A stretch of 64,000 bases of DNA from a phage. Below, piece after piece: positions 2,362 to 38,250 of this stretch. The position numbers and the translations under genes were made by a program. Within the stretch, counting starts at the first letter, position 1. Each line of letters begins with the position of its first letter. The stretch is from the sequence record PZ357121.2; one strand, 5' to 3'. The notes beneath the pieces were generated by a model. That model was not told where the DNA came from, made no database searches, and worked only from the letters and a program-made list of their open reading frames with translations.

Positions 2362-2571
2362 TTATCTCATTAAATTAAAATAAAAACGTCCATCCTCTTC
2401 AATACAGAACTCATACTCAACTGGAGTCCCATTTATTGAAAATGACACGTCATGTGGGTTCAAAGGGTCGATGTCAAAATTAATTTTAAATTCACGACCC
2501 AACAGTTTTACCAAATAAGGGATTGCTTCGTCAAAAGGTTCTTCTAAGTAGTTAGAGATGTCAATTGTCAT
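2362..2571 (-). CDS. hypothetical protein
   Basis: ORF track 2362..2655 overlaps gene 55 by ~95 nt; internal ATG at 2569-2571 with GAGGA upstream gives 69 aa. Confidence 0.4.
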
Positions 2572-3118
2572 CCTCATATAAAAAATCCAAACTAGGCGAA
2601 TCGCTAACAACTTCCTTCTTTTCAGCCCCAGGAGCTTTATAAGCGGATTCTTCATAATGCGTCATTTTATCGTAGATGTCTTGAATAAACGTTTCATCTA
2701 CCAACGCTACCATATCATCGTCATGACTGTCGTAGACATTATGAACGAAGTAACTATATTTCTTTGCAACTTCCTTACGTTCTTTTTTGATACGTTGGAC
2801 AAAAGCATTAAAACAAGCTCGAGTTATGTATGCATGTGGGTTATTGTACTTAGTTTCGTCGAAATTATGAAGTCCCTTAATAGAGGCTTCAATCCCATCT
2901 GCAATCATCTCCTGCTTCCAAGACTGGGTATATCCTGAAAAGTTGAAACGTTTGGACAGGCCTTCGGCGATAAGCATAATTGCTAAACCGATGGTATCAT
3001 TCTGACGAATAATTTTGTTTGGGTCTTTATTATTTAAGAGCTCCTTTTTCCACTCGATTATAGCGGCGAGAAGCTCTTTATTATTCACATAGTTATTTTT
3101 AGGTTTTTGTTCAGTCAT
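2561..3118 (-). CDS. 55: late-transcription sigma factor gp55
   Basis: 185 aa from ATG at 3116-3118 (ORF track starts at upstream TTG); strong similarity to my recollection of T4 gp55 (NYVNNKELL...[47 protein letters not shown]). Confidence 0.9.
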
Positions 3119-3139
3119 AAGTACCTCTTGGCTCAATTC

Positions 3140-3183
3140 ATAGGTCTATTATATCATAATATTTAGAGACCTATCTTAAAGCA
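3140..3183 (-). promoter_or_regulatory. promoter region upstream of gene 55: MotA-like box, TATAAT, 8-bp inverted repeat ATAGGTCT/AGACCTAT
   Basis: minus strand GCTTTAAGATAGGTCTCTAAATATTATGATATAATAGACCTATG. Confidence 0.45.
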
Positions 3184-3190
3184 CGAGATA

Positions 3191-3460
3191 CTATCGGAGC
3201 AAACAATAAGCCTGAAACACTTTTTCCATTAAACGTTTGAACTCATGGATATCGATATAAAGCTCAGTAAGACCGGCATTATAAAGAAAATCTAAAAAGT
3301 TCTCATGTGTTTCGTTATAGTCGCCTTCGTTTAATTGAGATACATGAGTTTCCCAAAAACCAACACCTTTAACAAATGGAAAATACGTAACTTTCATAAA
3401 GTTGTCGACGTAAAATTCACCCAGCTTTTCTTCAGTTATACTGATTCGAGTTAATTTCAT
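3191..3460 (-). CDS. hypothetical protein
   Basis: ORF track 89 aa. Confidence 0.5.
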   Translation of the reverse strand: MKLTRISITEEKLGEFYVDNFMKVTYFPFVKGVGFWETHVSQLNEGDYNETHENFLDFLYNAGLTELYIDIHEFKRLMEKVFQAYCLLR

Positions 3461-4080: not shown

Positions 4081-4319
4081 TATTTTTTAAGCATGAAAAG
4101 TAAGTAATTTGTATCACGTGGAGTAATATCAACACCCATATCAAAGATGCCTTTATAGATTGGGTATTTGTTTTCGGTTGTATCGAAGCTGAAACTATTT
4201 CCATCACAACTAACAGTAATAGCATCTGTTAAAATGTCATACTCAATCCTAACAATTGAATCCCCAATTTTAACGTCGAGGTGTTTTTTGAATTTGATAA
4301 AATCTAATTCTTGGGCCAT
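4080..4319 (-). CDS. hypothetical protein
   Basis: ORF track 79 aa. Confidence 0.5.
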   Translation of the reverse strand: MAQELDFIKFKKHLDVKIGDSIVRIEYDILTDAITVSCDGNSFSFDTTENKYPIYKGIFDMGVDITPRDTNYLLFMLKK

Positions 4320-4340
4320 GATATTTTCCTCATTTTAAGA

Positions 4341-4380
4341 CGATAGGAAGATAATAACATGTCTTCCTATCGTTGTACAT
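4341..4380 (-). promoter_or_regulatory. early-type promoter embedded in 11-bp inverted repeat CGATAGGAAGA/TCTTCCTATCG
   Basis: minus strand ATGTACAACGATAGGAAGACATGTTATTATCTTCCTATCG. Confidence 0.5.
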
Positions 4381-4382
4381 TA

Positions 4383-4583
4383 TTAACCGAACTTTTTAGC
4401 GCCTTTCCAGCCTTCGTACATAACTGCACAAGTCAGTAGTACAGCGTGCTGGCATTCTTTGTATTTGTAAATCCAGAACCAGCGTAAGAAGTCTTCATCC
4501 TCAACGCCGTTGAGTTTCATATTGGCAAAGAATTCGGCACGTTCTTCACGAAGCTTTTGCGATAACATAGATTCAGGATTCAT
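4383..4583 (-). CDS. hypothetical protein
   Basis: ORF track 66 aa. Confidence 0.45.
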   Translation of the reverse strand: MNPESMLSQKLREERAEFFANMKLNGVEDEDFLRWFWIYKYKECQHAVLLTCAVMYEGWKGAKKFG

Positions 4584-4714
4584 TTTGTGTTCCAGGCCCC
4601 ATTTTCATCGATGAACTTAATCCAGTCATTTACAGACCATTTAGTTGTATCACCCTTTGGATTAACATTTAAAGTATATAATCCCTGCTTAAAAAGCATT
4701 CGTTTGATATTCAT
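4580..4714 (-). CDS. hypothetical small protein
   Basis: ORF track 4580..4807; start moved to ATG at 4714 (GAGGAAA upstream), 44 aa. Confidence 0.3.
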   Translation of the reverse strand: MNIKRMLFKQGLYTLNVNPKGDTTKWSVNDWIKFIDENGAWNTK

Positions 4715-4721
4715 AATTTCC

Positions 4722-5015
4722 TCAACTGTAACGATAACATTCGTTAGCTTTACGTTTGGCTTCAGTATGAGAAGTATTATAATCATACTCTTCTTTACTG
4801 TAAACATCTTTTTTCAACTTACGAACTTCTTTGCGGAGTTGTCGATTCATTTCATTCTTGACTTCAGAATCAACGCCTTTCATACGCTTCCATTTATCAG
4901 AGCGGAATATGTTTTCAACCATGTCTTTGTGGCTAACACCGTCAGGAGCTTTACGCTTACCAAAATAGTCGTAATCGCGAACTTTCAAATCTTTACGACG
5001 ATATGTTTTACCCAT
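4722..5015 (-). CDS. hypothetical basic protein
   Basis: ORF track 4722..5042 (TTG); ATG at 5013-5015 with GAGGT upstream gives 97 aa. Confidence 0.5.
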   Translation of the reverse strand: MGKTYRRKDLKVRDYDYFGKRKAPDGVSHKDMVENIFRSDKWKRMKGVDSEVKNEMNRQLRKEVRKLKKDVYSKEEYDYNTSHTEAKRKANECYRYS

Positions 5016-5022
5016 AAGTACC

Positions 5023-5271
5023 TCAGAGGTTGATTGATACAACGCGTTTGATAAAATTCACTTCACTTACTGAAAGGTCTTTAAGACCGATTGATTCTAA
5101 ACGCTGAGTAAGCGTCAACATCGGGATATAATCCCAATGAGTTTTATTTGCTTGATAAGTACGAACGCCATTAGCAATTTCAACGTTCAAATCAGAAATG
5201 GTAATGAATATCGGACGTTCGTCATTAACTTTAAGGGTTAGAACAACTTTCTTTGAATCTAAACTAATCAT
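5023..5271 (-). CDS. hypothetical protein
   Basis: ORF track 82 aa. Confidence 0.5.
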   Translation of the reverse strand: MISLDSKKVVLTLKVNDERPIFITISDLNVEIANGVRTYQANKTHWDYIPMLTLTQRLESIGLKDLSVSEVNFIKRVVSINL

Positions 5272-5450
5272 GACTTAATTTCCTTCGCAATTGAACAGAA
5301 GATACCACGGTCACAAAGCATTTCACCAATTTCTGGATATTTGATTGAACGGTACCAAACATCCAGGTTTGAAACTTTGGTTATCTGTACTGCATTACCG
5401 TTGACAGAATAGTACTGGTCAACCTTAATTTCTTTATCTTCAATTGTCAT
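5268..5450 (-). CDS. hypothetical protein
   Basis: ORF track 5268..5612; start moved to ATG at 5450 (MTIEDKEIK), GAGGAAAA upstream, 60 aa. Confidence 0.4.
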   Translation of the reverse strand: MTIEDKEIKVDQYYSVNGNAVQITKVSNLDVWYRSIKYPEIGEMLCDRGIFCSIAKEIKS

Positions 5451-6551: not shown

Positions 6552-7022
6552 TTAATCATGTTTCCACACCCCATCGGTATTTGACCAAAGTCGCTGATTA
6601 TCTGATCCTCGCCACAGCTTTTTAGTCGGAAGATTTTTCTCATACTTCCCATCAATAATAACATCAACATATTTAAGCATTTCTAGTTGTTTAATATCTT
6701 CAAACTTATATCCTGTCCACAACCAAATGCTTTTATTGGGATAAAGATTTTTTACTGTTTGAGCAATGCAATGAATAACATCTCGGTTATCAGGATAGAG
6801 AGGGTCACCTCCGGTTATAGTTAATCCTTCTATATAATCATTATTCAAACATTCAATTAATTGTTCTAGTGTTTCACCAGTGAATGGAACACCATTTCTA
6901 GCATTCCATGTTGATTTATTATAACACCCTTCGCATTTATGCAAACAACCTGTAACGAAAAGAACGACCCTGCATCCAGGACCATTCACAAAATCGCAAG
7001 GATAAAATCTATCATAATTCAT
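6552..7022 (-). CDS. nrdG: anaerobic ribonucleotide reductase activating protein NrdG (radical SAM)
   Basis: 156 aa; CxxxCxxC motif GCLHKCEGC; lies directly downstream of nrdD. Confidence 0.9.
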   Translation of the reverse strand: MNYDRFYPCDFVNGPGCRVVLFVTGCLHKCEGCYNKSTWNARNGVPFTGETLEQLIECLNNDYIEGLTITGGDPLYPDNRDVIHCIAQTVKNLYPNKSIWLWTGYKFEDIKQLEMLKYVDVIIDGKYEKNLPTKKLWRGSDNQRLWSNTDGVWKHD

Positions 7023-8310
7023 TGGTGTTTAACCCTATGCATGATTTCTTTATTTTTACCGAGATTAAATCCGCGTTCGTTCGGATTTCCCAAATAACCA
7101 CATGTTCTTCTTATTGTGTTCATCTTTTTAGGATCAGTTTCTCCACAAACTGAACAAACAAATCCGTTTTCAGTAGGAGTCATTTCATGGGTACTTCCGC
7201 ATGTAAAACATTTATCTACTGGCATATTAACACCAAAATAATCTAAATGTTGTGCAGCATAATCCCATACGGCCTCAAGACCTTTTAGGTTATTTTTCAT
7301 ATCAGGAAGTTCAACATAAGAAATGTGACCGCCGGTCGCTATGAAATGATATGGCGCTTCACGAGAAATCTTTTCAAACGGAGTAATATTTTCTTCTACT
7401 GAAACGTGGAAACTGTTAGTGTACCAGCCTTTATCGGTAACATCCTTTACACTTCCATATTTTTCTGTATCGAGTTTACAGAAGCGATAACAAAGGTTTT
7501 CAGCAGGAGTCGAATATAAACTAAAAGCAAAACCGGTTCTTTCAGTCCACTGCTTAAGATGAGCATTCATTTTAGTTAAAATTTCTTGTCCAATATCACG
7601 ACCGACAAGAATATTCAATTCGTGAATACCAATGTATCCTAAGGACACTGAACTTCTACCGTTTTTAAATAACTCAATTATATCGTCATCAGGTTTAAGA
7701 CGAACCCCGAATGCACCTTCTTGGTAAAGAATAGGAGCAACAGTCGCTTTAACACCCTTTAAAGAACTAATTCTACACATCAAGGCTTCAAAACACAGAT
7801 CCATTCGTTCATTAAACAACTCGATAAATTTCTGTTCATTGAACTGTGTTCCAATATAAGAATCTAATGCGATGCGAGGAAGATTCAGCGTTACAACACC
7901 GAGATTATTACGTCCATCAAGAATTTCATTACCAGTCGAATCTTTCCATACGCTCAAGAAACTACGGCAACCCATTGGAGAAACTGGAACTGAAGAACCG
8001 GTAATAGCTTTATTATTCTTAACCGAAATAATGTCAGGATACATTCTTTTGCTTGCGCATTCTAACGCAAGTTGTTTAATATCATAGTTCGGATCATCTT
8101 TATAAAGATTAACACCTTCTTCAACAAACATAACAAGTTTAGGAAAAATAGGAGTTATTCCATCACGACCAAGACCTTTAATGCGGTTTTTAAGAATTGC
8201 CTTCTGAATAATTCGTTCAGTCCAGTCAATTCCCGTACCAAATGTAATTGTCACAAAAGGCGTTTGTCCATTAGAGCTGAAAAGTGTATTTACTTCATCA
8301 TTATATTCAG
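7019..8310 (-). CDS. nrdD: anaerobic ribonucleotide reductase NrdD, exon 2
   Basis: glycyl radical motif RRTCGYLGNP and zinc ribbon CFTCGS...CSVCGE at C-terminus; exon boundary inferred at about 8310. Confidence 0.85.
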
Positions 8311-9343
8311 CATGAGTCGCAAATTCATGCCCGTTTATATGAAACAACAAAATTTGGATAGTCCATAGATATGCAACGTTCTTTTATAGTGCTAGGATGA
8401 AAATTTAGCGCTTTAGCTGCTTCTATATAAGACGTATACTTAATACCGTCAACAACCACATATTCAGGAACTTTATGAATAGTAGTCTTAATACTCAAAA
8501 CAAGAGGATGAGTTTCGACTTCACTTTCAGTGCAATTTAAATATTCCGCTGCTTTTTTAAAACTTCTAAAAGTTTTATTTTTAAGCTTTATCGATACTTG
8601 TTTTTTACTTTTTCGACTATTGATATTATTTTGCACATGTTCCTTAGATCTTCCGTTTTTAGCATAATATTCAGCTACAGAAGATTTTATATTGTTTTTA
8701 TGAGATTCGGATAACACTTTACCCTTATGAGCATCTCTTAATTTTTGAATATGTTCTTCAGTATCCGGATGCTTATAAAACTTTTTACCGCCTATGGATT
8801 TATTTAAACATTTTTTGCTATAAAAATATTTACGTATGACCTCTTCTTCATGTTTTAATGCATCTTTATAACTATCAAATGTTTTTAAAATTATCCATTT
8901 AGTAGGTGTATCAGTTTTTAAGCGTTCATTTATATACTTAGATGACGTTGTGTAAGTTTTCCAGTTTGTGGGCTTGTTTTTAATTGTTCTAAATTTTTTA
9001 TAACCGATATAAATGTCACCATTAGAAAACTTAACTAAGTATGTAAATGCGTCTTTATCTTTTATTTTAGTACAACGTCTTTTTATCCATTTCATTGTTT
9101 CACCTCGTATTCATAAGATAATCTTATTTATACAAGATGACTGCTGCATGTCGCCATGCAGATTAGACTATATCTTCATCTTTCGATGCCGGCCGTTTCG
9201 AATAGCATTAGCTTCTATTCTACACCGCTACATTCATCACGGTTAGTCGTTAGGCATTTAGTTCAAAAGAACATTTAGCACGGGATTGTCTACTAGAGAG
9301 GTTCCCCGTTTAGACCGGTTTTACATGAGCCTGAATTAAATTA
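8311..9343 (-). mobile_element. group I self-splicing intron in nrdD (sunY-type), about 1033 nt, carrying a homing endonuclease ORF
   Basis: nrdD reading frame is interrupted; exon 1 ends ...TATGAGT followed by TAATTTAATTCAGG; conserved group I core GGTCTAAACGGGGAACCTCTCTAGTAGACAATCCCGTGCTAAAT at about 9255-9300; ORF sits 3' of the core; boundaries +/- a few nt. Confidence 0.8.
8325..9095 (-). CDS. I-TevII: intron-encoded GIY-YIG homing endonuclease, I-TevII-like
   Basis: 256 aa; N-terminal FTYLVKFSNGDIYIGYKK; NUMOD3-like repeats; C-terminal helix-turn-helix-like tail; GAGGTG before ATG at 9095. Confidence 0.75.
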   Translation of the reverse strand: MKWIKRRCTKIKDKDAFTYLVKFSNGDIYIGYKKFRTIKNKPTNWKTYTTSSKYINERLKTDTPTKWIILKTFDSYKDALKHEEEVIRKYFYSKKCLNKSIGGKKFYKHPDTEEHIQKLRDAHKGKVLSESHKNNIKSSVAEYYAKNGRSKEHVQNNINSRKSKKQVSIKLKNKTFRSFKKAAEYLNCTESEVETHPLVLSIKTTIHKVPEYVVVDGIKYTSYIEAAKALNFHPSTIKERCISMDYPNFVVSYKRA

Positions 9344-9881
9344 ACTCATACGCCTGGAATGCATCGTATACGTCTTTTTCTGTTTTAGATTGGGCATAAT
9401 TCAACGCATCAGCGATTTGCCATTTTTCTGCATCCTCAATATGTTTTGCATAGGTGCGTTTAACATAAGGAGAAAGAACTTTATCGACATTCGCAAATGT
9501 AGTTCCACCATACTGATGCGAAGCAACTTGTGCAGTAATTTGTGCCATAATTGCAGTAGCAACACCAATAGATTTAGGCGTTTCAATTTGAGCATTGCCG
9601 AGCTTAAATCCGTTTTCAAGCATTCCTTTTAAATCTACTAAACAGCAATTAGTAAAAGGCAATGATATACTGTAATCTAAATCATGAAAATGAATTAATC
9701 CAACATTATGGGCATTTACAATATGACTTGGAAGAATACGACAAGCGATATGTTTAGAAACAATACCGGCCATTAAATCTCTTTTTGTTGGAAAGACGCG
9801 AGAATCTTTGTTGGCGTTTTCTGTATTTAATTCTTTATCTTTATTTGAAATAAAATTTAAAACATCTTTTTCTAAAGACAT
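9344..9881 (-). CDS. nrdD: anaerobic ribonucleotide reductase NrdD, exon 1
   Basis: N-terminal 179 codons of NrdD (…NENANKDSRVFPTKRDLMAGIVSKH…FTNCCLVDLKGMLENGFKLGNAQIETPKSIGVATAIMAQ…); frame runs into intron stop at 9336. Confidence 0.85.
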
Positions 9882-10693
9882 AATTCTAATTTATCCTTTT
9901 GAAATTCTTCGTCTAAATATGGGTTCCAACCCATTTTAAACCTTTTGATGAAATTATCAATTCTAAATTTCGGTAAGTTTAAATCCGCAAAAATAGATGA
10001 TTTACTTTTAAAATCTGGACTTAAATAATCATATAAAATTTCTGCGTATTTTAACCATAATATACAAGTACCAGATTTAATTGCTCTCGGAGTTTTCCAA
10101 GGTTTTACACCATACATCGGATTTCCACTTCCTTTATGCCTGATAGAAGATGAAATTCCAATTTTAATTTTAGCTTCCTTTGTATGCGAAAATCCACGAT
10201 GTGGATTTTCTTTCCAGTATTTTTTAGAAGCTTCTGATATTTTCTTTCTGGCTAAATTAGTATGATGCTTTCCATAAAATCCATGATTTTTGCCTTTATT
10301 ACGATTTCTTTTAATCATGGTTATTGATTGCTTTTCTCTAGTTTCTTTAGAAGGAGAAATACCATATGTCGTAAATTGGCCATCAGCATATGCTAAATTA
10401 AAATACTCTTTATTCCATACATCTTTTTCTATATTCTTTTGAAATTCAGCTTCAATGCTAGTTATTTGTTCATCTCCGACTAATTGAAAATATAATATCT
10501 CAACTTTCGGCGTTTCTTTCAATAAGGCTTTTTGAAATTCGGAAGATGACGAAGACGAATAATAAAATTTACCATTTTTATCAATAATATTCGTTCCGTC
10601 AAAAGTGCAATTGGTTTTACTTCCAATGTAATAATATGGCGGGGTTTTAGCATTAATTCTACTAATAAACGATAGTTTATATACTACATTCAT
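9872..10693 (-). CDS. free-standing GIY-YIG family homing endonuclease-like protein (Seg-like)
   Basis: 273 aa; N-terminal VVYKLSF...PPYYYIGSKT; NUMOD3-like repeats (KETREKQSITMIKRNRNKGKNHGFYGK, HTKEAKIKIGISSSIRHKGSGNPMYG). Confidence 0.6.
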   Translation of the reverse strand: MNVVYKLSFISRINAKTPPYYYIGSKTNCTFDGTNIIDKNGKFYYSSSSSSEFQKALLKETPKVEILYFQLVGDEQITSIEAEFQKNIEKDVWNKEYFNLAYADGQFTTYGISPSKETREKQSITMIKRNRNKGKNHGFYGKHHTNLARKKISEASKKYWKENPHRGFSHTKEAKIKIGISSSIRHKGSGNPMYGVKPWKTPRAIKSGTCILWLKYAEILYDYLSPDFKSKSSIFADLNLPKFRIDNFIKRFKMGWNPYLDEEFQKDKLELCL

Positions 10694-11163
10694 TTTAAAC
10701 TCTTTCTAAGCTGCTTTTTGAATGAAGCTATTAATTGTGTTTTAGTATCAGATTCATTATATTCAAATCCTCTTTGAAGCATCTCGGCCATCATTTCCTC
10801 TTTACCTAGTCTCGAGAACTCTTTAGTTTTGTCTGGAACAAAATTAGGATGGATATTATTATCAGAATAATCTTGTTTCAAATAAGCAAGAAGAGCTTCA
10901 AGCCATTCGAGGTAGTTGACATCACGGCCTTTAAGACCGGAACGGTTGAACTTATGCTTCATTTGACCTTCTGCTGCGTTGCACAGATTACAGAGTAACC
11001 CACGAACTCTACCGGCTTTTGGCCCGTTTAATTCGTGGTCGTGGTCAAGATGGTTACCTTGAACATCAGGGTCTAATTCACGGTGGCAAATAGGACACTT
11101 ACCGTTCTGTGCATCATAAAATTTTTGTTTTTCTTCTTTATATTTTGCGCCTGATAATAACAT
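10690..11163 (-). CDS. 49: recombination endonuclease VII gp49
   Basis: 157 aa; zinc-binding CPICH and CNLCNAAEG motifs; strong similarity to my recollection of T4 gp49. Confidence 0.9.
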   Translation of the reverse strand: MLLSGAKYKEEKQKFYDAQNGKCPICHRELDPDVQGNHLDHDHELNGPKAGRVRGLLCNLCNAAEGQMKHKFNRSGLKGRDVNYLEWLEALLAYLKQDYSDNNIHPNFVPDKTKEFSRLGKEEMMAEMLQRGFEYNESDTKTQLIASFKKQLRKSLK

Positions 11164-37296: not shown

Positions 37297-37372
37297 TGGT
37301 GCCTCTAGAAAGATTTGAACTCTCACCATTAACCTTAGAACGATTATATGCTATCCATTACACTATAGAGGC
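37297..37372 (-). tRNA. tRNA-Arg (anticodon UCU), CCA encoded
   Basis: hand-folded cloverleaf: acceptor GCCTCTA/TAGAGGC, D-arm GTGT-AATGGATA-GCAT, anticodon stem TAATC/GGTTA with loop GTTCTAA, T-arm GAGAG-TTCAAAT-CTTTC, then ACCA. Confidence 0.8.
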
Positions 37373-38023
37373 AATTAAATTATTTACAATATCTTCTTTA
37401 TAAACTTCAGCATAATGAAGTTCATATATTTCCCATCCTAATGATTTTATAATATCATGGCGTTCTTTATAATAAGGGGCCAAAATCTTTTTCTTAGGAT
37501 TGGAGTAATGTTGGTTTCCATTAACTTCAATAATAATCTTTTTATCTATTAAAGCAATATCCGTGCAATACGCTCGGTTTTTAACCGGTTGGTATTCTTC
37601 AATAAATGAAATTCCGTTTTCTATTAATTTAGATTTCAAAAATTCACAAGGCACAGATTTAAATTTTGTATTTTTCTTCCAAGGATGTTTATCAGGGTTT
37701 TCATTCAACCATTTTTTCCGAGCATTAGATATTTTTATTCTAGATTCCTCAGAGTGTTCTCTACCTAATGAAGCGGCTGACAATTTTTGTCTAGTCTCTT
37801 CCGAAATTACTACAGGGACACCAGTCTTTTTAGATACAACATACTGGTTTAAATTACCTGAAGCTATACGTGCTTTATTCATTGCTGCAATGGCTGATTT
37901 AGAACTTTCTTTATACAATTCCAATTTAGGGTTGGATTTACACCATCTAGTGTGGTTAGCCATCCATCCTTTAGGTTTATTAGAAATATCAAATTCCATA
38001 TTACAATGTTTACAAATGCTCAT
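37358..38023 (-). CDS. putative free-standing endonuclease: N-terminal zinc finger, NUMOD3-like linker, C-terminal Vsr/DUF559-like (PD-(D/E)xK) domain
   Basis: 221 aa from ATG at 38023 (AGGAGA upstream); CKHCN...HTRWC; SEETRQKLSAASLGREHSEESRIKISNARKKW; IEVNGNQHY...ERHDIIKSLGWEIYELHY; last 5 codons overlap the 5' end of tRNA-Arg. Confidence 0.5.
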   Translation of the reverse strand: MSICKHCNMEFDISNKPKGWMANHTRWCKSNPKLELYKESSKSAIAAMNKARIASGNLNQYVVSKKTGVPVVISEETRQKLSAASLGREHSEESRIKISNARKKWLNENPDKHPWKKNTKFKSVPCEFLKSKLIENGISFIEEYQPVKNRAYCTDIALIDKKIIIEVNGNQHYSNPKKKILAPYYKERHDIIKSLGWEIYELHYAEVYKEDIVNNLIASIV

Positions 38024-38097
38024 TACCAATTATCTCCTATAAAATATAGGAGTATTTATTATTTGGATAGAGCACTTAATTTACTTCGTTTAAATTA

Positions 38098-38169
38098 CTG
38101 GCGCACTTGGACTCGAACCAAGATAAAGGAGTTAACAGCTCCCCGTAATAACCTTTATACGATGCACCA
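38098..38169 (-). tRNA. tRNA-Asn (anticodon GUU), CCA not encoded
   Basis: hand-folded: acceptor TGGTGCA/TGCGCCA (one G-U), D-loop with GG, anticodon stem GGGAG/CTCCT with loop CTGTTAA, T-arm CTTGG-TTCGAGT-CCAAG; D-stem has one mismatch. Confidence 0.6.
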
Positions 38170-38175
38170 TTTGTT

Positions 38176-38250
38176 TGGTGACCCTGGCTGGTTTCGATCC
38201 AGCTACCTATCAGTTATGAGCTGACAGCTCTCCCATTGAGCTACAGGGCC
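38176..38250 (-). tRNA. tRNA with CAU anticodon (Met, or Ile if lysidine-modified), CCA encoded
   Basis: hand-folded: acceptor GGCCCTG/CAGGGTC, D-arm GCTC-AATGGGA-GAGC, anticodon stem GTCAG/CTGAT with loop CTCATAA, T-stem GCTGG/CCAGC with atypical loop ATCGAAA, then ACCA. Confidence 0.7.

Follow-up and report, generated by a model that had tools for sequence, protein, structure and literature searches.

The minus strand of positions 9343-8299 of the window, the 64,000-nt stretch of phage DNA analyzed here (sequence record PZ357121.2), very probably holds a mobile, self-splicing phage IA group I intron in nrdD of a T4-like phage, a reading to which we assign a probability of about 0.93. Its anatomy, its homology to known introns, covariation within its helices and the colinearity of its flanks with intron-less alleles are direct observations of this analysis. 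The element belongs to a known type, in which phage nrdD is interrupted by a mobile group I intron that encodes a GIY-YIG-type homing endonuclease, and leaves the known workings of such elements unchanged. Overall, the classic T4 pair of nrdD intron and I-TevII is joined by a diverged sister that occupies the identical site.

All features described below lie on the minus strand. The nrdD gene of phage T2 is uninterrupted (1818 nt), and its alignment to the window gene leaves a single gap of 1045 nt at 9343-8299. Exon 1 (9881-9344, 538 nt, from the ORF list) is colinear with T2 nrdD nt 1-538 and exon 2 (8298-7019, 1280 nt including the stop codon) with nt 539-1818, and because of this colinearity the junctions are fixed at 9343 and 8299. 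The 5′ exon ends in AUGAGU and the intron opens with UAAUUUAAUUCAG followed by GCUCAU; its first bases, TAATTTAATTCAGG at 9343, are those given in an earlier note made from the sequence alone. At the other end, the intron closes with ...CUGAAUAUAAUG and exon 2 begins with AUGAAGUA. The exon-1 frame (ORF 9336-9881) encodes the N-terminal 179 NrdD residues and ends ...DAFQAYELI before a stop, in agreement with the frame break after ...DAFQAYE recognized earlier. This in-frame UAA at 9336-9338 occupies intron nt 6-8, 5′ of the guide sequence, and translation of the T4 allele gives a read-through product ending ...AYELT with the stop at the same position. ORF 7019-8350 contains the remainder of NrdD preceded by 17 unrelated residues, and exon 2 offers no start codon of its own where it meets the intron.

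Removal of 9343-8299, with the terminal G at 8299, restores the conserved NrdD frame, colinear with T2. The product spliced in silico is a 605-aa NrdD reading ...QAYE-YEVNTLF, with 94% identity to the T2 and T4 proteins and 100% identity to both across exon codons 76-180. It matches Pfam NRDD over positions 1-562/562 in one stretch and also the glycine-radical domain, bearing out the proposal that the intron splits nrdD. A 200-nt query across the spliced junction matched 583 phage records as one colinear piece; these are intron-less alleles, whereas intron-bearing phages match as two halves. By the identical alignment procedure the intron measures 1033 nt in T4 and G8 and 1031 nt in U5, and the insertion follows nrdD nt 538 in these three phages and in the window. 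The gene should be annotated as a join of 9881-9344 + 8298-7019. In many public records with an intron of this type, nrdD is given as two CDSs, of which the second begins within the intron.

The insert had been called a group I intron, with a covariance-model search suggested as a check, and such a search supports the assignment. Rfam RF00028 (Intron_gpI) matches 9144-9379 with 70.6 bits (gathering score, 50; E = 1.4e-17), spanning model positions 1-253/253 in a 1.25-kb search of 8200-9450. At the gathering threshold, a search of the entire 64-kb window returned three tRNAs only, the intron being missed by the filters, and a core-motif scan of the window yielded no further group I intron. The internal guide sequence GCUCAU (9325-9330) pairs with exon AUGAGU (9349-9344) to form P1, a helix of six standard pairs that ends in a U.G wobble at the 5′ splice site. 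The ribozyme core, supported by RF00028, a helix check against T4 and RNAalifold, occupies 9145-9318 in the order P3-P4-P5-P6-P6a-P7-P7.1-P7.2-P3′-P8-P7′-P9. Its helices are P3 (CCGGUC/GGCCGG), P4 (ACGGGG/UCCCGU), P5 (UCU/AGA), P6 (GC/GC), P6a (GUUC/GAAC), P7 (GACUA/UAGUC, 9248-9244 + 9170-9166), P8 (CAUC/GAUG) and P9 (UGCAUG/CAUGCA, intron nt 184-199), together with the extra helices of subgroup IA, P7.1 (ACCG/CGGU) and P7.2 (GAAUAG/CUAUUC). P2 is absent. Otherwise P1 through P9.2 all form, with no non-standard pair in either the window or the T4 intron. By eye, no P9.1 helix closing across the ORF was found in the window intron, where the CUGUUUAU/AUAAACGG pairing of T4 is not conserved.

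These helices are maintained by compensatory change. A comparison of the window intron with that of T4 nrdD, limited to helices that match in length, shows both partners altered in 13/45 pairs. A five-intron alignment was assembled from the window intron, the T4 nrdD intron, the nrdD intron of phage C3, an Aeromonas phage terminase intron and the T4 td intron with its ORF loop masked. From this alignment RNAalifold recovered P3, P4, P5, P6, P6a, P7.1, P7.2, P8, P9 and P9.2, and P7 was entered as a pseudoknot on top of these helices for the pair counts. The resulting 56 pairs in 11 helices are paired in 97.3% of cells, a value that is inflated, since part of the structure came from this very alignment; the compensatory-pair count, with 28/56 pairs changed on both sides, among them three in P7.1 and five in P7.2, is the stronger evidence. 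None of 500 shuffles reached any of five measures, and helix partners slid by 1-3 columns paired in 35-41%. P7 and J8/7 are invariant and therefore uninformative for covariation, but in these catalytic segments the window intron does not differ from active T4 introns.

Two readings that dispense with splicing can be weighed against this core. One holds that the insert is a decayed, non-splicing relic, leaving nrdD a split pseudogene or two separately translated halves. The two-CDS annotations would agree with it, as would the window intron's RF00028 score, which is below the 105.3 bits obtained for the T4 nrdD intron in the same test; nrdD is also dispensable in aerobic growth. Nevertheless, we consider a relic very unlikely: all core helices are intact and kept so by compensatory change, P7 and J8/7 retain the segments of active introns, codons 76-180 are unchanged from T2 and T4, and exon 2 lacks a start codon at the junction. 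The two-CDS annotation arises because annotation pipelines do not model bacterial introns. Under the other reading, nrdD is split by a free-standing homing endonuclease cassette with no intron involved, and split ribonucleotide reductase genes of this kind do exist, as in phage Aeh1, where mobE splits nrdA (PMC3653736). The insert here contains a complete group I core that exceeds the Rfam threshold, a P1 with U.G at the 5′ junction, a terminal G at the 3′ junction and boundaries exactly colinear with intron-less alleles. A cassette is already contradicted by the RF00028 match, the T2 alignment and the five-intron covariation, and its probability is close to nil.

In contrast to the 5′ junction, the 3′ junction in the earlier note must be moved. 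The intron had been placed at 8311-9343, a length of 1033 nt equal to that of T4, with exon 2 resuming at EYNDEVNTLF; alignment to T2 nrdD puts the true junction at 8299 and the length at 1045 nt, so that 8311 lies 12 nt too far upstream and the agreement with T4 is a coincidence. The intron's last 12 bases code for the residues EYND, which were mistaken for exon because the exon-2 frame stays open upstream of the junction. The true end carries the motif UGAAUAUAAUG (8299-8309), whose last base at 8299 is the terminal G (omega-G). The corresponding terminal bases are UGAACACAUUG in the T4 nrdD intron and UGAACAUAAUG in both the T4 td intron and the ORF-less nrdD intron of phage C3, and all four introns share UGAAYAYAWUG up to the splice site. 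Directly before this motif, each of the four has a P9.2 hairpin, which in the window (GCAUGA/UCAUGC, 8310-8330, intron nt 1014-1034) folds as a hairpin and holds 6/6 pairs, 5/6 of them changed on both sides relative to GUAGAG/CUCUAC in T4. The sister introns thereby offer a natural covariation data set for this remote 3′ domain.

Splicing after G 8311 would give a 609-aa NrdD reading ...QAYE-SEYND-EVNTLF, and the site has some outward appeal. The product remains in frame, and G 8311 lies between AU and CUGAA, mimicking the true context AUG/AUGAA (the slash marking the splice site). However, T2 nrdD and the 583 other intron-less records read YEYEVN with no 12-nt insertion, and the terminus conserved in four related introns sets the end at 8299. 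Furthermore, 8311 is a paired G in the 3′ strand of P9.2, and its homologous base in T4 is C. We therefore regard 8311 as an extremely improbable boundary for this intron, although this second G, in the similar context AUG/NUGAA, could in principle act as a competing 3′ splice site.

For the intron ending at 8299, two short pairings that may help to position the 3′ end can be read from the sequence. UUCA just 5′ of the guide sequence (9332-9335) can pair with UGAA at exon-2 nt 2-5 (8297-8294), making it a candidate P10 by direct reading. Likewise, the dinucleotide preceding the terminal G is complementary to J7/9 and would give a putative P9.0, as AU/AU in the window and UU/AA in T4.

As noted earlier, the intron carries a 256-aa ORF on the minus strand (8325-9095, intron nt 249-1019) 3′ of the core. 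It lies between P9 and P9.2, starting 50 nt past P9, and its UGA stop codon is inside the 5′ strand of P9.2. The description of the product as I-TevII-like holds: by BLASTP, 144/257 positions are identical to T4 I-TevII (56%) from end to end, with E = 1e-101. Pfam SegE_GIY-YIG (PF19835) scores 26.6 bits against a cut-off of 25 and NUMOD1 25.3 bits against 22.8, whereas the generic GIY-YIG family PF01541 reaches 10.3 bits, below its threshold of 22.6. PHROGs places the ORF in phrog_314, homing endonuclease, and NCBIfam gave no match. In the ORF one can see the motifs F-T-Y...Y-I-G-Y together with E and N, all common to I-TevII, which has been classed as a GIY-YIG enzyme (PMC2988022).

Among 5.8 billion proteins, the relatives detected at the sensitivity of the tool fall into only two clusters, one of the window type (n=64) and one of the I-TevII type (n=38), and the alignment is therefore too shallow for a good structure model. 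An AlphaFold model from a 3-sequence alignment has a mean pLDDT of 57 and an N-terminal beta-beta-alpha-beta-alpha arrangement. Foldseek found no match for this model in the PDB at E <= 0.001, but its weak top matches include the DNA-binding domain of I-TevI as well as UPF0213 and Slx1, which we take to be GIY-YIG proteins. A PDB sequence search with the ORF returned nothing even at E <= 10.

Signals that could control expression of the ORF are also present. A 10-pair hairpin at 9101-9139 buries GAGGUG (9106-9101), the Shine-Dalgarno sequence of the endonuclease gene, with a minimum free energy of -17.6 kcal/mol (z = -4.8) compared with -17.4 kcal/mol (z = -4.9) for its T4 counterpart. Within the hairpin, at 9125-9132, TATAAATA is an exact match to the T4 late-promoter consensus and sits at the same relative position in the T4 intron. 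Late transcripts starting after TATAAATA would be without the 5′ strand of the hairpin, a regulatory logic of late promoter and hairpin described for I-TevII (PMC2988022). Just 5′ of the ORF, TATGAATACGAGGTGAAAC is identical in both lineages and resembles the exon junction of the T4 allele, TATGAGTATGAAGTGAAC. This likeness fits the putative operator proposed in a review (PMC2988022).

From the T4 system we infer that this element splices, that its endonuclease is active and that it homes. In the pre-mRNA, the guide GCUCAU and the end of exon 1 would form P1, and the P3-P9 core would bind guanosine and cleave after U at 9344. The P9.2 hairpin, a two-pair P9.0, P10 and terminal G 8299 would then bring in the 3′ end, and exon ligation would produce the mRNA for the 605-aa NrdD. 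Early read-through transcripts would hide the ribosome-binding site in the hairpin, and the late promoter within the hairpin would provide translatable transcripts. The 256-aa enzyme would cut the intron-less nrdD of co-infecting phages, and repair would copy the intron, with flanking exon sequence, into the cut allele.

The closest characterized counterpart is the T4 nrdD (sunY) intron with I-TevII. The two share the nrdD insertion site (after ...UAUGAGU), the guide GCUCAU, the absence of P2, the order of helices, the in-frame stop at intron nt 6-8 and an ORF placed after P9 and before P9.2. Upstream of the ORF, both also have the late promoter, the RBS hairpin and TATGAATACGAGGTGAAAC, and the endonucleases belong to the same length class with the same domain order. 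In contrast, the introns differ in length (1045 versus 1033 nt) and have a DNA identity of only 66%, and the endonucleases (256 versus 258 aa) are 56% identical. The sequences of P3, P6a, P7.1, P7.2, P8 and P9.2 differ with compensatory pairs, and the loops of the RBS hairpins differ by an 11-nt insertion. The window ORF stops in the P9.2 stem, whereas that of T4 is two codons longer and extends into the P9.2 loop. With 56% identity and presumably one target, the two endonucleases would be useful for studies of GIY-YIG specificity.

The T4 td intron shares the phage IA core and the 3′-terminal motif after a P9.2 hairpin. Its I-TevI is an endonuclease of the GIY-YIG class under late-promoter and hairpin control (PMC2988022), as in the scheme proposed for the window. 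However, it interrupts another host gene at another insertion site, possesses P2, and has its ORF within the loop of P6a rather than after P9. Between I-TevI and the window ORF, identity is only 16%. Introns in nrdD of Escherichia coli myoviruses, Escherichia phage HMD-6 and ‘Campylobacter phage C3’ (a Justusliebigvirus record), have cores ~82% identical to window intron nt 14-203 and are closer to the window than the T4 nrdD intron is in several core segments. These introns too interrupt nrdD, but at another codon (exon 1 of HMD-6 measures 1170 nt), with different 5′ exon and P1 sequences. The HMD-6 intron has an HNH ORF in the P6a loop and the C3 intron is without an ORF, both unlike the window.

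An alignment to the T4 nrdD intron and I-TevII had been suggested as a check, and it showed the same site and full-length homology to I-TevII, but an intron identity of only 66%, against our expectation of near-identity. The introns of T4, G8 and U5 are 99.6-99.9% identical to one another and 66% identical to that of the window, which is 99.8% identical to the ELT1 type (1045 nt). The window intron is therefore a member of a sister lineage and not the T4 intron, and the global alignment, which rules out near-identity to the T4 intron, leads to a picture of two lineages. Using the 1251-nt query 8200-9450 and requiring at least 80% coverage, we found the window type in 44 other phage records; among the 40 matches listed, identity to the query is 98.6-99.6%. 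An intron-only search showed that the vB_EcoM_SYGD1 intron is 100% identical to that of the window. The T4 type, at 99% or more identity to T4, accounts for 25 records, many of which are T4 isolates. We found no description of a second nrdD-intron lineage in the searched literature, and an earlier description may exist.

Different segments of the core have different closest relatives. The P1 region is nearest to the T4 nrdD intron (85%), P7.1 (95%) and P7.2 (83%) are nearest to the Aeromonas phage terminase intron, and intron nt 30-71, from the 3′ part of P3 through the 5′ strand of P6, are 42/42 identical to the T4 td intron. Accordingly, the 44-nt segment quoted earlier as the conserved T-even group I core is present at 9316-9273, but in its td-intron version and not that of T4 nrdD. 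The core thus looks mosaic, although recombination and constraint are indistinguishable with these data. The ribozyme could be a natural mosaic with td-like P3-P6, Aeromonas-terminase-like P7.1/P7.2 and T4-nrdD-like P1, P9 and ORF context; if so, phage introns would have exchanged domains in nature. Shuffling of domains between T4 introns has reportedly been achieved by experiment. G 8311, which is specific to this lineage, might additionally act as a cryptic in-frame 3′ splice site, yielding NrdD with four extra residues. A broader view joins all of these elements: an uncharacterised second lineage, commoner than that of T4 (44 versus 25 records), with a mosaic ribozyme, a competing endonuclease and a cryptic site at 8311. 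Taken together this combination is doubtful; were it correct, the I-TevII paralogue of the window lineage would compete with I-TevII for one homing site.

Beyond the intron, the window as a whole is Tequatrovirus, its best match being Shigella phage JK45 (96.9% over 95% of the first 25 kb). The pairing of the intron with an upstream gene for a 273-aa endonuclease was considered as a unique feature and rejected, as Salmonella phage Lv5cm carries both.

In the window, a seg-like free-standing homing endonuclease gene of 273 aa on the minus strand (9872-10693) separates nrdD from gene 49 (10690-11163) and overlaps the start of nrdD. Its product matches phrog_7504 and contains NUMOD3 repeats together with a V-V-Y...Y-I-G-S motif. 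We found the gene in 49 phage records, and T4, T2 and Escherichia phage ELT1 are without it. The portion of nrdD next to this endonuclease gene is divergent: NrdD codons 1-75 (9657-9881, minus strand) share just 63% identity with their T2 and T4 counterparts, identity to both rises to 100% over codons 76-180, and most phages match exon 1 from nt 226 onward only. Judged from sequence, codons 1-75 look like a divergent tract tied to the adjoining endonuclease, whether by target-site immunity or by co-conversion.

At the other end of the gene, nrdD runs straight into nrdG (6552-7022), the two sharing positions 7019-7022, and the HNH gene mobC is absent between them. In this respect the window resembles T2, which also lacks mobC at this boundary, and differs from T4 and ELT1, where mobC lies between nrdG and nrdD.

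Comparison of the intron with its relatives suggests that the core may be a mosaic. Intron nucleotides 30-71 (9273-9314, minus strand), a segment of 42 nt, match the T4 td intron at every position, and across the same segment the T4 nrdD intron mismatches the window at about one quarter of positions. The nearest relative of P7.1 and P7.2 of the window intron is a terminase intron from an Aeromonas phage. Related group I introns also interrupt nrdD elsewhere along the gene in other E. coli myoviruses. In Escherichia phage HMD-6, the P6a loop of the intron (2499-3248 of locus L007) houses an HNH ORF, and the intron in a Justusliebigvirus record named 'Campylobacter phage C3' (about 600-930 of locus L009) is ORF-less and lacks annotation; both insertion sites differ from that of the window intron.

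The G at 8311 (minus strand), which the earlier note had proposed as the 3′ junction, has a local context of AUG|NUGAA, as at the real 3′ splice site, and splicing there would keep the frame while adding 12 nt. This G is base-paired within the P9.2 hairpin, and the T4 nrdD intron differs in having a C at the matching position. The 8311 G might act as a cryptic 3′ splice site peculiar to this lineage.

An Rfam search of all 64 kb at the gathering threshold missed the intron, and the same intron scored 20 bits above the Rfam threshold when 1.25 kb was searched; Rfam speed filters can lose ORF-bearing introns. Scanning the window for core motifs turned up no further intron. Its tRNA genes number only three, Arg-tct, Asn-gtt and Met-cat (37297-38250, minus strand); the T4 tRNA cluster comprises eight genes.

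In many public records with this intron type, nrdD is entered as a pair of distinct CDSs, and none of the listings examined includes a join or intron feature. In ELT1 (4104-5432 of locus L002), the second nrdD CDS begins within the intron, so placed that it overlaps the endonuclease gene at that gene's end.
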